A stretch of 64,000 bases of DNA from positions 1-64,000 of the IMG/VR virus record IMGVR_UViG_3300025519_000044, one strand, 5' to 3'. Positions within the stretch are counted from its first letter, which is position 1. Each line of letters opens with the position of its first letter. This stretch comes from a virus. The position numbers and the translations under genes were made by a program. Below, one piece after another: positions 5,374 through 31,005 of the stretch. The notes below the pieces were generated by a model. It did not search any database and was not told the DNA's origin. It was given only the letters and a program-made list of their open reading frames with translations.

Positions 5374-6000
5374 TTACAGTGAAAATTGTTCCTTGCCGTT
5401 AGCCATGATTACTAAATTCTGCTTTTTTACGTTTGGAATTCTATAAAATATTGGATCTGGTTGTAGCTCACGTAATTCATCAGAATCTGTATTGAAAATA
5501 CAAGTTTCCTGCAATAAATTTAAGCGGTTCAAAGCAAAATCAACCGTCACATTATATTCTTTCGCAAGTTCATCAGCTAAAATTTGACGATTATTATAAT
5601 GTTGAGAAACATCAGCTTTTAATATCCAGCTAACCGGCATTAATAAATTTGCAGCCAATTTGAAAGCCTGCAGTTCCGTTTTATTCAGTGAATATTCGTT
5701 CATCAGCAATTCGTTTGAATAGTGTAGATACAAATGAGAAAATTCTTCAGCAAGAATTTGTCTTTCGACAATTTCATTTTTGTATGTCCCTAATTCAATA
5801 AGGCCCCGTCGCTTATCTTTAATAGGCCAGGATCGACTGTATGGTTCCTTGATGTGATTTATTTTCATGCCATATAAATCGCATAGTGTAAATAGATCAA
5901 TTTCAGACGGATGCTTGAATTGAACATGTTTCAATATTTTCTTTGCCTCTTCTTCGTAAAAATCTTTTTTCTTCATTAAAATAAATTGTCGAAGTCTCAT
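5374..6000 (-). CDS. ImmA/IrrE-family metallopeptidase (anti-repressor)
   Basis: LAEEFSHLYLH and ELQAFKLAANLLMP motifs; adjacent to the repressor. Confidence 0.85.
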   Translation of the reverse strand: MRLRQFILMKKKDFYEEEAKKILKHVQFKHPSEIDLFTLCDLYGMKINHIKEPYSRSWPIKDKRRGLIELGTYKNEIVERQILAEEFSHLYLHYSNELLMNEYSLNKTELQAFKLAANLLMPVSWILKADVSQHYNNRQILADELAKEYNVTVDFALNRLNLLQETCIFNTDSDELRELQPDPIFYRIPNVKKQNLVIMANGKEQFSL

Positions 6001-6023: not shown

Positions 6024-6428
6024 TCATTCTAAATAGTCATTATCATCCTTTAATGCTTCCTCTACATATTTCTTGTATAACTCATAAGATTTTATCAAGT
6101 GCCTTACGTTTTTTTCGGGATCTTTTTTTAAATCATGGAATAATGATGGATGTTTCAATAATTCCTTAAAAACTTCATATTCATCTTTATCCAATGTGAT
6201 TTTTTCTCCAGCAACATCAATTTCCTTGTCCTCTTCACCCAATATGTAAGCAGTCGTTACTCCAAATAAATCAGCAAACGCTTTTATTTCTTGGTCTTTC
6301 AACGGACGTTTACCGGATTCAATTCTGCTTATCACCGAATAATCTATTCCTATTCGTTTTTCAACTTCCCTCAAAGACCAGTTGTTCTGTTCCCTTAGTT
6401 TTTTAATAATCTGACCTGGTTCGGACAT
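6024..6428 (-). CDS. XRE-family CI/ImmR repressor
   Basis: HTH_3 (IKKLRE..SRIESGKR); divergent from cro. Confidence 0.9.
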   Translation of the reverse strand: MSEPGQIIKKLREQNNWSLREVEKRIGIDYSVISRIESGKRPLKDQEIKAFADLFGVTTAYILGEEDKEIDVAGEKITLDKDEYEVFKELLKHPSLFHDLKKDPEKNVRHLIKSYELYKKYVEEALKDDNDYLE

Positions 6429-6443
6429 GGTATCACCACGCTT

Positions 6444-6576
6444 TTTTCTGTTTTAGCAATAATATTTTATCATGTTTCTGTTTTAGAAACATATTTTTTG
6501 CTGAAATAACAACAAAAAATGTTGACTTTGCCAAAATAACAAATTATAATAAAGTCAAGTTGTTAATATAGCAACA
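6444..6576. promoter_or_regulatory. Phage A switch region: lytic promoter and operators
   Basis: TTGACT(6522)-17-TATAAT(6545); several imperfect GTTGCT-N5-AGCAAC palindromes, with another inside cro at ~6797. Confidence 0.75.
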
Positions 6577-6591
6577 AGAAAGGAGGACATC

Positions 6592-6834
6592 ATGCAACAG
6601 TTTAACCTTGCGTTCATTGTTAAAAGAAGGAAAGAGCTCAATCTTTCACTTCAGTATATGGCGGATGGGTTAGGATTCAGGAATGCCTCAACCTATTTAA
6701 AATACGAAAGGGGAGAATATCAGTTAAGGGCAAATCAACTGCCCATTTTAGCCAAGCTACTGCAATGCAGTGTATCAGATTTTTTTATAAAAAACGTTGC
6801 TAAATCAGCAACAAAAGCAAAGGAGGTTTGTTAA
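6592..6834 (+). CDS. Cro-like XRE regulator
   Basis: Small HTH divergent from CI; AGGAGG RBS. Confidence 0.85.
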   Translation: MQQFNLAFIVKRRKELNLSLQYMADGLGFRNASTYLKYERGEYQLRANQLPILAKLLQCSVSDFFIKNVAKSATKAKEVC

Positions 6835-7620
6835 TTGAACTCATTGCAAGTCTTCAATTTTAAACAAAATGAAGTTCGCACCATTTTAAAAGATGGCGAA
6901 CCATGGTTTGTTGCAAAAGATGTAGCAAGTATTTTGGAATTTAAAGATGCTTTTTCGATGTGCCAGCATTTAGACGATGATGAAAAGCAAAACCTTCAAT
7001 TAGAAGGTTTTAAACGGGGAGCTATTGCCATAAGCGAGTCAGGACTATATTCAGCAATACTCCGCAGCCGCAAACCTGAAGCCAAAGAATTCAAACGTTG
7101 GATTACCCATGAGGTTATCCCGTCCATCCGAAAACATGGCGCATACATGACACCAGAAACGCTCGAAAAAACAATCAGTGATCCTGACTTCCTGATCGGG
7201 CTACTTACCAATCTCAAAGAAGAAAAAGCAAAACGAGTTAAGGCCGAGCAGGAACGAAATCAATTGATCGAACAGCAAAAAGCTGACCTACCGTATACAA
7301 GTTTTGGAAAAGTCGTTTCAAACTCAACTGGTGCAATCAGTATCGGAGCATTTGCCAAAATGCTGTACGACAAGCACGGCATCAACATCGGCCGTAACAA
7401 ATTATTCGCTTGGCTACGTTCCCATGGATATCTCATCTCCGGCGGACGTGAACACAACAATCCAAAACAAACTTATTTGGAACAAGGGTTGTTTGTTGTA
7501 AAGCCAACCGTTGTCAGCCGAACAGAAGGAGACGTTGAAAAACTAACACCTCTAATCACTGGCAAGGGTCAAATCAAAATTGCCGAACTCCTGATCAAAG
7601 AATTTGAGGTGGTGGTCTAA
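6835..7620 (+). CDS. Antirepressor (BRO-N plus KilAC/ANT)
   Basis: EPWFVAKDV, FKRWITHEVIPSIRKHG, GRNKLFAWLR, ITGKGQ. Confidence 0.92.
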   Translation: MNSLQVFNFKQNEVRTILKDGEPWFVAKDVASILEFKDAFSMCQHLDDDEKQNLQLEGFKRGAIAISESGLYSAILRSRKPEAKEFKRWITHEVIPSIRKHGAYMTPETLEKTISDPDFLIGLLTNLKEEKAKRVKAEQERNQLIEQQKADLPYTSFGKVVSNSTGAISIGAFAKMLYDKHGINIGRNKLFAWLRSHGYLISGGREHNNPKQTYLEQGLFVVKPTVVSRTEGDVEKLTPLITGKGQIKIAELLIKEFEVVV

Positions 7621-7806
7621 ATGCGTAACAACACCCTAACAGTCCAAGAAGTTGCAACTTATTTAGGTGTTCACCCAGACACAATTTATACCATGGTCCG
7701 TGAAAAGCAGATCCCATTTTTCCGAGTTAGGAAACGCATCTTCTTTTCGCGTGAATCAATCGATAAATGGATTGCTGCCCAGGAAAACAGTGTTGCATCG
7801 TTCTAG
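7621..7806 (+). CDS. Excisionase-like HTH_17 protein
   Basis: LTVQEVATYLGV..IP..R pattern. Confidence 0.8.
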   Translation: MRNNTLTVQEVATYLGVHPDTIYTMVREKQIPFFRVRKRIFFSRESIDKWIAAQENSVASF

Positions 7807-7869
7807 TTTTATCTTACTGTTTTCTGATGTCCAGAATAAACAAGATCTTTGTACAGGGGGAAACTACTG

Positions 7870-8388
7870 ATGAAAGAATCTGCAAAGGTGCAAGAAGCCT
7901 TGGCGATTCTGCAACAAGAAGGACTAACACAGAAACAAATCGCACAAGACACTTACCAGTCATATGAACTGGTAAACAAGCAAACGAAAGGAACGCGTAC
8001 CATGAATAAAGATGTCGCACGTCATGCCATACAGACCTATAAAAATTATGAATTCGAGCAATCAATCCTGCACGAGTTTTCGGAAGGACTGGCAAGCCCG
8101 GTTATGGGAGGACCGTACGTTGAACGGCACCGTATGGTTCTGGAAGAAATCGCAGAAGCAGAGATAAAGGATGCACTCCGTATCATCGACGAAGTTTCCT
8201 TGGTCAAGCCTCCGAACGTATGCTCAAATGACGAACGGGAGGATGTTCGACGGATGATGCATGAGCTCATCGAGGCTCGGGTAACGATCGACAACCTGCT
8301 CATGATATTGGAACGAGATTATGGTTTTACTGTAATGGAAGAATCAAAGAAAGTACTTAGAAAACTACGAAGTGAGAGGCGAATTTGA
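7870..8388 (+). CDS. Hypothetical phage regulator (HTH-like N-terminus)
   Basis: ORF in early operon; RBS before 7870. Confidence 0.55.
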   Translation: MKESAKVQEALAILQQEGLTQKQIAQDTYQSYELVNKQTKGTRTMNKDVARHAIQTYKNYEFEQSILHEFSEGLASPVMGGPYVERHRMVLEEIAEAEIKDALRIIDEVSLVKPPNVCSNDEREDVRRMMHELIEARVTIDNLLMILERDYGFTVMEESKKVLRKLRSERRI

Positions 8389-8672
8389 TGATTACCAAAG
8401 AAGATTTTTTGCCGGTTGATTTGCCAAAAGCAATTGAGCATTACAAATGCTGTAAAACATGCCTGCATTTAGCTGAAACCGAACTGGAACTCGGGCAGCT
8501 CAACATGGCAGAAATGCGAATGATTGATTTTAACCGGTCTCTCGCAGAGCTGAAGCGATTGAAAGAACGGAAAATCCAGCAGGACCGAATCAATGCCATG
8601 ATTTGTGAATTGATCGAAAAAGGCATTGATATTCACAAAATTATATTTTTGGGTGGTCAACAAAATGGGTGA
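8385..8672 (+). CDS. Hypothetical phage protein (YqaH-like)
   Basis: Coupled ORF in skin-element-like synteny. Confidence 0.5.
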   Translation: MMITKEDFLPVDLPKAIEHYKCCKTCLHLAETELELGQLNMAEMRMIDFNRSLAELKRLKERKIQQDRINAMICELIEKGIDIHKIIFLGGQQNG

Positions 8673-8960
8673 GCTCATATTCATGGGATGGTTTGTTCCG
8701 GCCGTAATCATTGGCAGATGGCTTTTAGAGGAGTGGCTGAAATGAATATTTACGAAAAGGCTGAAATTATTCTGGAAGCATTGTCCGAATACATCAACGT
8801 CGACGATGAAGCTTTTCATGACATTTATATCAAAGCAATCGTCAATGGCTTGGTTGAAATTAGACAAAAAGAAAAGCAGTAAGAAGTTGGCGCTTCAAAC
8901 TGCCTATAACGTTCACGCATGTAATTTACTCTTTCATTGTATCACAGTGAGGTGTGTTAA

Positions 8961-9143
8961 ATGAAGAAAAAACTGACTAACTATTCAAGCGTTGATCATC
9001 ATTGGAAAAAGCTGCTAGGTTGCAAGTGCGGATGGTTCATTGAGACCACAGACGTGCTTCTCATTATCAAAGATTACAACCATAGCAGGCTAATAGATTA
9101 CAGGCAAGAAATTAAGTCGAAACTAGGCGCAATGATCGCCTAG
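8961..9143 (+). CDS. Small hypothetical protein
   Basis: GAGGTG RBS; stop codon lies inside the hammerhead. Confidence 0.55.
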   Translation: MKKKLTNYSSVDHHWKKLLGCKCGWFIETTDVLLIIKDYNHSRLIDYRQEIKSKLGAMIA

Positions 9144-9183
9144 TCCGCCGGAGATAGCCTCCCGGCGCTGATGAGACAGGCTG
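9116..9183 (+). ncRNA. Type II hammerhead ribozyme
   Basis: GTC-GAAA, stem III CTAGGCG/CGCCTAG, TC cleavage site, stem I CGCCGG/CCGGCG, CTGATGA-GAC; loop TAGCCT can pair with AGGCTG. Confidence 0.9.
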
Positions 9184-9240
9184 CGGAAAGGGGCGAATCA
9201 ATGAAAATTAAAACAGGTGATTGGCTTAAACTGAATCGTT

Positions 9241-9534
9241 TTGAAAAGCACATATTGTTGTGTTTGGCAATTCAAGCTGGAAGGAGTGAAAAGAGTGAAA
9301 CAGCCAGTGCTTAATGTGAATGGGAAACGATTCAAAATCCATTCGATTAATTGGTATAAAAATGGTGAGATTTGCCATATCTCAGTTTTCATGAACGGGG
9401 AGAGCAAAACGATTTTCAATGATGATGCTTCTATCTTCAAGTACGGAATTGTTTTCGACGGTGAAACGGAAGATTCGTATTCACAGCATTACATGCTTGA
9501 CTTAAGCCAGGAAGGAATGATTACGAATGATTAA
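9241..9534 (+). CDS. Hypothetical protein
   Basis: ORF; true start probably a downstream GTG after GGAG. Confidence 0.55.
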   Translation: MKSTYCCVWQFKLEGVKRVKQPVLNVNGKRFKIHSINWYKNGEICHISVFMNGESKTIFNDDASIFKYGIVFDGETEDSYSQHYMLDLSQEGMITND

Positions 9535-9739
9535 CACAATTGAACACCCGGATATTACCAGAGTGCGCCGATTTGGATATCTGCAAAATAATGATCCGGA
9601 GCTTTTCGGTTGCGACTACTTCGGTGATGAAATCTTTTATGGCGACGATGTGGTTGAAATTGACGGTGAACTTGTTTTACAAGACAATCTTCAAAAATTT
9701 TTGGTTGAGCTCTACGGCGCAAAGTTTTACACGGCATAA
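9527..9739 (+). CDS. YqaI-like hypothetical protein
   Basis: IEHPDI..DYFGDEIFYGD; directly before yqaJ. Confidence 0.65.
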   Translation: MINTIEHPDITRVRRFGYLQNNDPELFGCDYFGDEIFYGDDVVEIDGELVLQDNLQKFLVELYGAKFYTA

Positions 9740-9835
9740 TAAAAAACTCCCATTGCCGTGGGAGTAAGTTGCTTTAAATAAGACTACACCTTAATTCTAT
9801 CGGTCTTTGAAAATTTTATCAAGAGGTGAAGAAGC

Positions 9836-10783
9836 ATGGCAATGAATCAAAACGCTATTTCCACAAAAGAAATGAGCCGTCATGAATGGCTTCAGGCTCG
9901 CACCAAGGGGATTGGCGGTAGTGATGCCGGCATTATCCTGGGCCTGAATAAATACAAGACGCCTTTCGAACTCTGGCTTGAAAAGACTGGCCAGGTCGAT
10001 CCCCAAGAAGGCGACAGTGAAGCGATCTATTGGGGAAACCAAATGGAAAATGTCGTGGCAAAAGAGTTTGAAAAGCGAACGGATAAAAAGGTACGCCGGT
10101 CAAACTTTATGTACAGCCATCCAGATTATCCTTTTATCCGTGCCAATGTCGATAGGTTGGTAGTTGGAGAATCGGCCGTACTTGAATGCAAGACGGCCAG
10201 CGCTTACCTTGCAAAAGAGTGGGCAGGTGACGAGGTTCCAGCCTCTTACCTTGTCCAAGTCCAGCACTATCTGGGCGTTACCGGCAAGGAAAAAGGATAT
10301 ATTGCCGTGCTGATCGGAGGGAATCGGTTCGTATGGAAAGAAATCGAACGCGACGATGAACTGATCAGCATGATTTTCCAAGCTGAAAAGGATTTTTGGG
10401 AAAACAATGTGCTGGCCGGAGTTGCCCCTGAACTGGACGGAAGCAGCGCGGCTGAGAAGTATCTGGCCGAAAAATATGCCAAATCGGATCCTGATAAAGA
10501 GATCGTTCTTCCAAAAGATTTCAATGCCTATTTGGAAGAATACTTCAAAATCAAGGAAAACGAGAAGCTGATTAAAGCTGCGAAAACTGAGATTGAAAAC
10601 AAACTTAAAGCTGAGCTGAAAGAAGCGGAGATTGGCCGGGTTGGCGACTATATCGTCACTTGGAAGAAGCAGGTACAGAAACGCGTTGATTCCAAAGCAT
10701 TACGGGAAAAGTTCCCCGATATTCACCAGCAAGTTATTAAAGAAACATCATTCCGCAAACTTGCGGTTAAGGAGGAAAAATAA
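9836..10783 (+). CDS. YqaJ-like viral recombinase exonuclease
   Basis: GIGGSD, LECKT, QVQHYL motifs. Confidence 0.93.
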   Translation: MAMNQNAISTKEMSRHEWLQARTKGIGGSDAGIILGLNKYKTPFELWLEKTGQVDPQEGDSEAIYWGNQMENVVAKEFEKRTDKKVRRSNFMYSHPDYPFIRANVDRLVVGESAVLECKTASAYLAKEWAGDEVPASYLVQVQHYLGVTGKEKGYIAVLIGGNRFVWKEIERDDELISMIFQAEKDFWENNVLAGVAPELDGSSAAEKYLAEKYAKSDPDKEIVLPKDFNAYLEEYFKIKENEKLIKAAKTEIENKLKAELKEAEIGRVGDYIVTWKKQVQKRVDSKALREKFPDIHQQVIKETSFRKLAVKEEK

Positions 10784-11679
10784 TGGCAACAAATGCAGCG
10801 CTAAAAAACCAAATTGCAAGTAAACAGGAAGGAACCAAACAAGTATCTGCTCAATCGTTGGGGTTAAAAGCTTTGCTCAATACCCCAACGATGCAAAAAA
10901 AGTTTGAACAAGTTTTGGACAAGAAGGCACCACAATTTATGTCTTCTTTGCTCAACCTTTACAACGGTGATCCGAACATTCAGGCCGCCGAGCCAATGAG
11001 CATTATTTCAAGCGCCATGGTCGCAGCAAGCCTTGATCTTCCAGTTGACAAAAACCTAGGTTATGCCTGGATCGTGCCATTTTATGACAGTAAGAAAGGC
11101 CATAAGGTAGCACAGTTCCAGCTTGGTTATAAGGGGTACATTCAACTGGCATTACGGACTGGCCAATATAAAGCGATCAACGTCATCGCTGTTCATGAAG
11201 GTGAGCTCATTAAGTGGAACCGGCTGACCGAAGAAATCGAACTGGATTTAGAAGGTGCCACAAGCGAGAAGGTAATCGGATACTGCGGATATTTCAAGCT
11301 GATCAATGGCTTTGAAAAGACGGTCTACTGGACCAAGGATGAGATCGAAGCGCACAGGGTTAAGCATAACAAGATGAAGGACAAGAATGCTCTCAATAAT
11401 GTATGGAAAAGCGATTATGACGCTATGGCCATGAAAACGGTCATCCGCAACATGCTCAGTAAGTGGGGAATTTTGAGCATTGAAATGCAGACGGCCGTTA
11501 CCGAAGATGAACGGGAAACACATGATATCACGGATGAAACGAATGCGGAAGAACCTGAAATCATTGATTACCATCCAGAACCGGAGACCGAGAAAGAAGA
11601 AGCGTCGCAACAGGAGCAGGCAAAAGTTGAAGATAAGAAATCGGCTGTTGAAATGGATGAAAATGACCTTCCATTCTAA
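10783..11679 (+). CDS. recT: RecT single-strand annealing protein
   Basis: LGYAWIVPF, QFQLGYKGYIQLA, AMAMKTV motifs. Confidence 0.93.
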   Translation: MATNAALKNQIASKQEGTKQVSAQSLGLKALLNTPTMQKKFEQVLDKKAPQFMSSLLNLYNGDPNIQAAEPMSIISSAMVAASLDLPVDKNLGYAWIVPFYDSKKGHKVAQFQLGYKGYIQLALRTGQYKAINVIAVHEGELIKWNRLTEEIELDLEGATSEKVIGYCGYFKLINGFEKTVYWTKDEIEAHRVKHNKMKDKNALNNVWKSDYDAMAMKTVIRNMLSKWGILSIEMQTAVTEDERETHDITDETNAEEPEIIDYHPEPETEKEEASQQEQAKVEDKKSAVEMDENDLPF

Positions 11680-30090: not shown

Positions 30091-31005
30091 ATGGCATCAG
30101 TAAACTATGCCGAACTGTATTTACAGGCACTTCAACAAAGATTCGTTGATGCCCTTATGTTTAATGACCTTTACAATACGCCAAACAATGACAATATCAA
30201 ATGGATTAATGCGAAAACCGTCCAAATCCCTCATATTGTTGTTGGTGGGTATCAAGATGTTGCTCGTGATGCCGTAGGCGGTTATACTCGCCGCGCTGAC
30301 AACGCATGGGAAAGCAAGACCTTGCAACACGATCGGGAATTCCGCACGCTTGTTGACCCGACAGATATCGATGAAACAAACCTTGCTTTAAGCATCGCCA
30401 ATATTACCCGGGTTTTCAATGACGAGGAAAAAATTCCGGAACTTGACAAATACATGGCGTCAAAACTGTACACGGAATTTACCAAATATGGCGGTACTGC
30501 ATTGACGGACAACATCACGGAATCAACTGTTTTGGGCATGTATGATGAACTGATGTATGAAATGGATGAAGCTGAAGTACCGCAAAACGGACGTATTCTT
30601 TATGTGACACCAACGGTTTCAAAAGTGCTGAAAAACGCCGATAAAGTGACTCGTTTCTTGCAAGTGACGGATGCAGGTGGCGCCATTAATCGTAATGTTC
30701 GTTCACTCGATGAAGTTAAAATTGTAACGGTTCCATCGTCCCGGATGAAAACCATTTACAACTTTACGGATGGCGCAGTTGCGGACACATCGGCTGCCCA
30801 AATCAATATGATCTTGGTCCATCCGTTATCGATCATCACCCCGATGAAATATGAATTTGTGTCTTTGAGTGAACCAAGCGCCGTAACAGGCGGCAAATAC
30901 CTGTACTACGAACGCGCTTACTGGGATGTATTTGTGCTTGAACAAAAAGCACCTGGCATTAAATTTGCGATCACACAACCTACTCAACAACAGTCAGGGT
31001 CTTAA
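30091..31005 (+). CDS. Major capsid protein
   Basis: Position and size; DIDETN, IPELDKY. Confidence 0.88.
   Translation: MASVNYAELYLQALQQRFVDALMFNDLYNTPNNDNIKWINAKTVQIPHIVVGGYQDVARDAVGGYTRRADNAWESKTLQHDREFRTLVDPTDIDETNLALSIANITRVFNDEEKIPELDKYMASKLYTEFTKYGGTALTDNITESTVLGMYDELMYEMDEAEVPQNGRILYVTPTVSKVLKNADKVTRFLQVTDAGGAINRNVRSLDEVKIVTVPSSRMKTIYNFTDGAVADTSAAQINMILVHPLSIITPMKYEFVSLSEPSAVTGGKYLYYERAYWDVFVLEQKAPGIKFAITQPTQQQSGS

Follow-up and report, generated by a model that had tools for sequence, protein, structure and literature searches.

The stretch of DNA analyzed here (64,000 nucleotides (nt) from a virus, positions 1 to 64,000 of the IMG/VR record IMGVR_UViG_3300025519_000044, hereafter the window) bears at positions 9115-9185 what is very probably a real self-cleaving type II hammerhead ribozyme, with cleavage predicted between C9145 and C9146. 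The element lies on the same strand as the early operon of what appears to be a temperate siphophage, 2.6 kb 3' of a near-consensus promoter. As the best explanation overall, we favor with moderate confidence a functional hammerhead that would split the polycistronic early mRNA, and we lean slightly toward a constitutive role in intercistronic mRNA processing. The element is recognized by its family model, its fold covaries among phage copies, and its position between two blocks of early genes recurs in related and unrelated prophages.

Identity and fold of the hammerhead

Infernal cmscan was run on the whole window, on both strands and with all 4227 families of Rfam 15, and gave as its only match in the window RF02276 (Hammerhead_II) at 9115-9185 on the plus strand, with 39.4 bits against a gathering score of 37 and E = 1.7e-4. 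A search of the 91-kb virus record with this single family gave E = 5.7e-8 and no second RF02276 copy. The match is far beyond chance expectation. An initial annotation, made from the letters of the DNA, had described a canonical type II hammerhead with a pseudoknot and had named an Infernal search with Rfam models as its check; every element that it listed lies where it had been placed, and the family model agrees with it above the gathering score.

The catalytic core is complete, with CUGAUGA, GAA (9119-9121), and H17 (C9145) all in place. The three core-closing pairs A9122-U9144, G9175-C9118, and C9146-G9167, on which the rejection rule of Perreault 2011 (PMC3088659) acts, are present as well. 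The first of them lengthens stem III to 8 bp (9122-9129/9137-9144) and leaves a loop of 7 nt (9130-9136). Stems I and III each end in a loop and stem II opens to the flanks—the topology of type II, with which the Rfam structure line agrees—and stems III and I also appear in the centroid fold. Loop I is expected to form a pseudoknot of at least 4 bp with the nucleotides that directly follow stem II on its 3' side; here, UAGCCU and AGGCUG form five Watson–Crick pairs and one G-U pair. By the standard numbering of hammerheads, the cut is predicted to leave the 2',3'-cyclic phosphate on C17 (9145) and the 5'-OH on C1.1 (9146). The cut would fall 2 nt past the stop codon of an open reading frame (ORF) of 60 amino acids (aa), as the initial annotation had it: the TAG occupies 9141-9143. 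The coordinates of all features are collected in Table 1.

Table 1. Coordinates of the hammerhead, its parts, and the surrounding features in the window (SD, Shine–Dalgarno sequence)
Feature	Position	Strand	Basis or remark
Type II hammerhead, whole	9115-9185	+	RF02276 match
Stem II, 5' strand GUC	9116-9118	+	Pairs with GAC 9175-9177; open stem defining type II
Core G12 A13 A14 A15.1 (GAAA)	9119-9122	+	Sequence and Rfam alignment
Stem III, CUAGGCG/CGCCUAG	9123-9129 / 9137-9143	+	Sequence
Alternative-pairing segment (loop III and stem III 3' strand)	9130-9141	+	With 9191-9203; weak lead
G-U-C before cleavage	9143-9145	+	C17 = 9145
Predicted cleavage site	9145/9146	+	Hammerhead numbering applied to the sequence
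Stem I, CGCCGG/CCGGCG	9146-9151 / 9162-9167	+	Sequence; 6 bp and 10-nt loop
Pseudoknot strand UAGCCU in loop I	9155-9160	+	Pairs with 9178-9183
Core C3 U4 G5 A6 U7 G8 A9 (CUGAUGA)	9168-9174	+	Sequence and Rfam alignment
Stem II, 3' strand GAC, then pseudoknot tail AGGCUG	9175-9177, 9178-9183	+	Sequence
SD (GGAAAGGGG) and ATG of the next gene	SD 9185-9193, ATG 9201-9203	+	SD begins 2 nt past the pseudoknot
37-aa ORF directly 3' of the ribozyme	9201-9314	+	Translation
60-aa ORF	8961-9143	+	Conserved; ends inside the ribozyme 5' half
M78 peptidase	5374-6000	-	Pfam
cI-like HTH repressor	6024-6428	-	Pfam
Likely early rightward promoter, TTGACT-17-TATAAT, upstream of cro	6522-6550	+	Consensus scan, 11/12 matches
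cro	6592-6834	+	Pfam gene map
Bro-N/KilAC antirepressor	6835-7620	+	Pfam gene map
YqaJ exonuclease	9836-10783	+	Pfam
RecT	10783-11679	+	Pfam

Conservation and covariation among relatives

A distant BLAST search of window 8600-9900 against 50,697 phage records gave Anoxybacillus phage A403 as the sole match, limited to window 9143-9182. The hammerhead of this phage (MG969427, complement 30294-30360) sits in an unannotated gap and reaches 39.7 bits with RF02276. In stem I, core, stem II, and pseudoknot loop it closely matches the window copy, stem III is wholly different yet paired (CCGGGA/UCCCGG), and the tail AGGCUA gives six Watson–Crick pseudoknot pairs. The position in the operon is the same—past repressor, cro, antirepressor, and small ORFs, and ahead of those for replication—and, as in the window, the next SD and start codon lie no more than 18 nt downstream. 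Unlike in the window, no annotated or long ORF runs over the A403 hammerhead, and the flanking genes bear no DNA similarity to the window. Upstream of it lies an unannotated ORF for a 26-aa hydrophobic peptide (L002:3836-3916; MIEILAYWGLLFVASGLMIVWYSIEK), which resembles a small hydrophobic peptide in the L135 insertion described below.

Closer to the window, diverged prophages of the Heyndrickxia coagulans type retain the ribozyme, with an upstream protein that is 67-72% identical. In the relatives L134-L137, the stem I pair G9147-C9166 is replaced by A-U, a compensatory change; the three substitutions in the ribozyme hairpin III all fall in loop III, and the sixth pseudoknot position varies. 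The copy in L135 scores 42.7 bits for RF02276. This is the pattern of substitutions that selection on the RNA fold would be expected to leave.

The same relatives bear on a reading in which the element acts at the level of DNA, as a module linker or passenger: a boundary promoting module exchange in mosaic phages, with RNA cleavage incidental or lost. That the hammerhead is the only DNA similarity between the window and A403 would fit such a linker, and so would L135, which ceases to be homologous to the window precisely at the end of the pseudoknot tail, where an insertion of 250 nt begins. A similarity of ~40 nt is, however, short for homologous exchange, and the compensatory change in stem I, the free change in loop III, and the covarying pseudoknot speak for selection on the RNA fold, as does the invariant core. 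We consider a function at the DNA level very unlikely.

The insertion itself (L135:3226-3475, IMGVR_UViG_2630968647_000001; ~250 nt in a relative that is otherwise collinear) contains a structured segment that includes a tRNA-like T-arm (GGTTCGATTCCGAC), then a hairpin with a U-rich tail, and then an ORF with a strong SD for a hydrophobic peptide of 27 aa. A tRNA, considered for the GGTTCGATTCC-like T-arm, was rejected: ARAGORN found none in the insertion, and Rfam gave none at E <= 1. BLAST gave no phage match for the insertion.

A contig of H. coagulans DSM 1 matches the hammerhead pattern built from the window copy, and the DSM 1 prophage is 98% identical to the window over 8700-9560 (860 bases compared). 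The host is H. coagulans, and the window would belong to a temperate siphophage of this species. Under strict filters and among the matches listed, RF02276 is matched in at least 1 of the 44 species representatives of the family of the host, namely in H. coagulans itself. The hammerhead appears to travel with the phage lineage rather than to be a feature of the host.

A wider view is given by a pattern scan of IMG/VR that specified the core, stem II, and tail start only. It matched over 120 loci, of which some bear as many as four copies, with 126 unique matches. A shortest-match parser recovered both stems with at least four contiguous pairs in 105 of these; the remainder look mostly like misassignments, with a few plain chance matches. 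Across the 105 copies, each stem position shows several pair types and pairing lies far above permuted controls; the middle pair of stem II, for instance, is U-A in 39, C-G in 36, and G-C in 25 copies. Loop I and tail share a mean of 4.86 contiguous pairs, as against 3.63 +/- 0.085 with permuted tails (z ~14), and no copy departs from the invariant catalytic core. Covariation across 105-125 phage copies thus extends to all three stems and to the pseudoknot. The stem I of the window, with its 6 bp and 10-nt loop, represents a common class within this family. Some uncultured phages (the IMG/VR contigs L037, L100, L020, and L022) bear three to five type II hammerheads within a few kb, with an SD and a start codon behind each one; arrays of this kind were described in 2011.

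Type II hammerheads as described in Perreault 2011 (RF02276, PMC3088659) resemble the window copy in their identical core, their pseudoknot between loop I and tail, their residence in prophages, and their intergenic position between small genes. The window copy differs from them in a longer stem III (8 bp closed by a loop of 7 nt, where a 4-nt loop is the norm) and in a 5' half that encodes the end of the 60-aa ORF, while most copies start at or after the upstream stop. The supplementary files of Perreault 2011 mention a Bacillus cereus copy and none from coagulans, Anoxybacillus, or Brevibacillus. The "PK hammerhead" known from a crystal structure (PMC11300833) was considered as closest relative and rejected; its helix II is replaced by a pseudoknot, which makes for a different architecture.

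Position in the early operon and a proposed processing role

The gene map shows the classic layout of a temperate phage. Repressor and cro are divergent, and the promoter at 6522-6550 is of near-consensus sigma-A type and would be active toward cro. Several small unknown ORFs lie on the plus strand between the antirepressor and the 60-aa ORF. On the other side of the ribozyme, the 37-aa ORF is followed by a 79-aa ORF and then YqaI (Pfam gene map), and beyond RecT lie an IstB/DnaC-like loader, DUF1064, HNH, and YopX (Pfam). The 37-aa ORF is 94.6% conserved in L134-L137, where neighboring genes are 67-83% identical. No strong terminator was predicted from the promoter at 6522-6550 to the ribozyme. 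The initial annotation had placed the hammerhead in the early lytic transcript, and the map position—divergent repressor and cro, the promoter, all genes on the plus strand, no strong terminator—supports this placement, with the single long transcript being the part that we infer. It also had the ribozyme part the regulatory genes from those for recombination and replication, which describes the map fairly. Further downstream, yqaI and yqaJ are separated by a G+C-rich hairpin (window 9746-9765), which has a good T-tail on the minus strand; on the plus strand it looks like a weak terminator, or may be an RNA-stability element in the early operon.

In the processing role that we favor, the nascent early transcript would fold and cut itself between C9145 and C9146. 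The upstream piece would carry cro, the antirepressor, and several small ORFs, and would end in the 8-bp hairpin of stem III with a one-nucleotide overhang bearing the 2',3'-cyclic phosphate; hairpin and cyclic phosphate together should resist 3' exonucleases. The downstream piece would carry the 37-aa ORF, yqaI, yqaJ-recT, the replication genes, and later modules. It would start flush with the stem I hairpin, the 5'-OH nucleotide C9146 being paired with G9167, and the next SD would follow ~40 nt on. Because each piece would be capped by a hairpin, each gene block could be degraded and translated independently of the other, and the element would act as a natural insulator or processing site.

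Comparable elements are known from several systems. RiboJ, a hammerhead derived from sTRSV and placed before a ribosome-binding site (RBS), serves as a synthetic insulator that strips off the RNA context on the upstream side and leaves behind a 5' hairpin. The likeness to the window copy, a self-cleaving hammerhead immediately 5' of an RBS, is one of analogy only and not of family relationship: RiboJ is engineered, has another topology, and sits in a 5' untranslated region, whereas the window copy lies between natural cistrons. Stabilizers made of a 5'-terminal hairpin and an RBS have been described for Bacillus mRNAs, and the predicted downstream piece resembles them.

Within the type II class itself, pseudoknotted hammerheads cleave at >1 per minute at 0.5 mM Mg2+, and disruption of the pseudoknot slows them 20-fold to >100-fold; clusters of them occur in prophages, and a role in processing long phage transcripts has been proposed (PMC3088659). 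In Desulfovibrio vulgaris, three type II copies close to phage genes cleave in vivo, as seen by cyPhyRNA-seq (PMC8782182). These copies and the clustered prophage hammerheads (Perreault 2011, Fig. 3) share with the window copy the class, the vicinity of phage genes, and the proposed role of cutting transcripts; in contrast to them, the window copy is single in its record, not part of an array, and its activity is a predicted one. Reviews describe the role of the thousands of hammerheads in phage and bacterial DNA as still elusive and mention processing of polycistronic RNA only as a suggestion (PMC6765202, 2019; PMC13725137, 2026).

The layout of the phage family argues for a role in gene-by-gene expression. 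Of 125 copies, 96 (77%) have, 5-30 nt past the core, an SD with a start codon whose frame extends for at least 35 codons; for random positions in these loci the share is 11%. In 75 of the 125 (60%; control 3.7%), a frame of at least 45 codons on the upstream side has its stop codon beginning at -7 to -2 from the C of CGAAA, and 57 of 125 show both the abutting stop and the SD with start codon. Genes directly 3' of the hammerheads are small (median ~86 aa) and mostly bear no Pfam family; a Pfam tally over 88 of them gave 11 families with one or two proteins each (among them DUF932, ArdC, GemA, SSB, and HTH) and no dominant function. This agrees with the report that the identities of flanking genes are not constant for hammerheads (Perreault 2011, PMC3088659). 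A hammerhead 240-650 nt upstream of yqaJ-recT is found in the window clade, in two Brevibacillus borstelensis prophages (L124 and L130), and in L029, with a YqaJ that in the latter three is only 38-49% identical to that of the window. In these unrelated Bacillota prophages (L124:10-73, L130:6657-6720, and L029:12549-12614; the B. borstelensis strain is NRRL NRS 818), the distance is 240-400 nt. The ribozymes of L124 and L130 have an identical stem III and differ by one base in loop I.

Several points weigh against a cleaving, transcript-processing hammerhead in the window. The margin of RF02276 over the gathering score is 2.4 bits, which is small because loop III is long and the model puts one insert in stem II. 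The minimum-free-energy fold of 9110-9205, calculated without the pseudoknot, is an alternative structure and not the hammerhead, and the thermodynamic z-score of this segment is only -1.1; thermodynamic stability is a poor detector for the hammerhead here. Slim margin and unremarkable z-score are what a chance resemblance or a dead relic without ribozyme activity might show. Such a relic would, however, have to coexist with E = 5.7e-8 for the record, with a core intact at all positions, and with independent copies in relatives that carry compensatory changes. Its 6-bp pseudoknot, moreover, has a geometry of the kind shown to support fast cleavage (PMC3088659). We regard chance or decay as extremely unlikely.

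The remaining points concern what would follow cleavage and how the element is placed. Stabilization of the pieces by terminal hairpins would be an extrapolation from mRNA decay in Bacillus. The glmS ribozyme of Bacillus, which likewise cleaves itself, is a precedent in the opposite direction, as its 5'-OH product is degraded by RNase J1. The likeness lies in self-cleavage within the mRNA of a Bacillota host giving a 5'-OH product, as predicted for the window copy; glmS differs in its unrelated fold, its dependence on a metabolite, and the destabilization of the downstream mRNA by cleavage. In the window copy, the pairing of the 5'-OH nucleotide in stem I should hinder the entry of 5' exonucleases. 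The tight packing of stop, ribozyme, and SD could be mere compaction of phage genomes.

Expression data are the last of these points. Relatives of the window stretch occur in 16 RNA-seq runs, and contigs from four RNA-seq libraries, of ~93%-identical prophages, bridge 9145/9146 unbroken. Such contigs show only that uncleaved RNA or contaminating DNA is present and cannot reveal RNA ends; they neither support nor contradict cleavage. One RNA library, of a ~93%-identical relative, gives a contig of 4,026 nt over the early operon (window ~6845-10870) that bridges the hammerhead site at a word depth of ~4850. This depth suggests strong expression or phage induction in that condition.

Coding overlap and translation

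The only unusual trait of the window hammerhead is its overlap with a gene. The 60-aa ORF runs into the 5' half of the ribozyme with its last nine codons (KSKLGAMIA) and its TAG stop, the stem III hairpin (9122-9144) also encodes residues 54-60 and the stop, and the stop begins at +23 from the C of CGAAA, in the 3' strand of stem III. The ORF looks like a real, conserved gene, with a good SD (GAGGTG, 6 nt 5' of its ATG), a conserved length and C-terminus, and several synonymous differences. Seven IMG/VR prophages encode it; the homologues, at 95% and 67% identity, are all 60 aa long and all end in KSKLG-x-M-(I/L)-A, and several of the DNA differences between the window and L134-L137 are synonymous in our reading of the alignment. 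The variable residues 57 and 59 of the protein are exactly those whose codons lie in loop III.

The overlap is conserved within the H. coagulans clade only. In A403 and L112, the closest frame on the upstream side with at least 45 codons stops 165 nt short of the cleavage site and no ORF overlaps the ribozyme, and a stop codon inside the ribozyme is found in ~5% of the 122 phage copies, so that overlap does not accompany the ribozyme in the other ~95%. A TAA at 9113-9115, the usual position -5, was considered as an ancestral stop bypassed by a frameshift and rejected: it is out of frame and reads TCA in L134-L137, where the codons ATC AAG are conserved. There is no sign that the overlap arose by a recent frameshift, as this TAA is both out of frame and not conserved.

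Such an overlap invites the idea, raised already in the initial annotation, that translation gates cleavage. Ribosomes on the 60-aa ORF would unwind stem II, the GAAA core, and stem III, and the transcript would be cut only if the ORF is unread; were cleavage to come first, ribosomes would terminate 2 nt from a hairpinned 3' end, and cleavage and upstream expression would be coupled. The nine codons and the stop within the ribozyme fit this idea, as do the conservation of the ORF, its common C-terminus in all relatives, and the mapping of its variable residues to loop III. In the wider family, 54 of 122 upstream stops begin at -5 or -4 from the C of CGAAA—most commonly TAA or TGA at -5 and TAG at -4, stop codons that include the ribozyme's conserved A(-3) and G(-2)—and these are the closest positions that the core sequence allows. 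With the usual footprint of a ribosome, a terminating ribosome would cover the 5' part of most phage copies. The deep overlap is, however, specific to the clade, the closely similar ribozymes of A403 and L112 are free of any overlapping ORF, and abutting stops are equally expected from simple genome compaction. Gating by ribosomes is hence a reasonable hypothesis, plausible for an overlap that appears real but clade-specific, and on balance we think it unlikely.

A second coupling to translation would run through the SD of the 37-aa ORF. Here, 9130-9141 would pair with 9191-9203, the span from SD to AUG, and the formation of stem III, followed by the irreversible cut, would release the SD; as long as the RNA stayed misfolded, ribozyme and translation would both be blocked. 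This pairing (11 pairs with two bulges) is the one present in the minimum-free-energy fold of 9110-9205. In the window, the duplex reaches -13.4 kcal/mol and 3.2% of shuffles are as good, and in L134 and L136 it reaches -17.0 kcal/mol (<=0.2% of shuffles), with substitutions on both sides (A9135C, A9197G, C9199A) that give nine contiguous pairs in a shifted register. The Brevibacillus copy L124 shows -17.2 with 2.8% of shuffles as good. The pairing is, however, not significant in A403, L112, L029, and L135, and in L135 the 250-nt insertion separates the ribozyme from the SD. Family-wide, the effect is marginal (-6.07 vs -5.78 +/- 0.16, z ~ -1.9), and G+C-rich stem strands easily pair with purine-rich SDs by chance. 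Pairing of stem I with the SD gave no signal across the family. Unmasking of the SD by cleavage is thus a doubtful proposition, and we would be rather surprised to see it hold.

The two ideas could be joined into a three-way switch in the window clade, in which upstream ribosome traffic would decide between the ribozyme (cut, RBS open) and a masked form (uncut, RBS closed), while across the family translation termination would license cleavage. We take this combination to be quite improbable and return to constitutive intercistronic processing as the favored role.

The window hammerhead is a new example of a class known in prophages since 2011 and brings no new principle; any Rfam-based annotation would probably detect it, and the A403 copy is unannotated in its record. 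What it offers is a convenient test case: the prophage belongs to a cultivable, industrially used host, and, as the hammerhead is the only one in its record, its effects are not confounded by other copies. It sits at a clear functional boundary, between the genes of regulation and those of recombination and replication, and its rare coding overlap allows for a direct test of the interaction between translation and cleavage. For the family as a whole, the statistics gathered here put numbers on the stop–ribozyme–SD layout of phage type II hammerheads.

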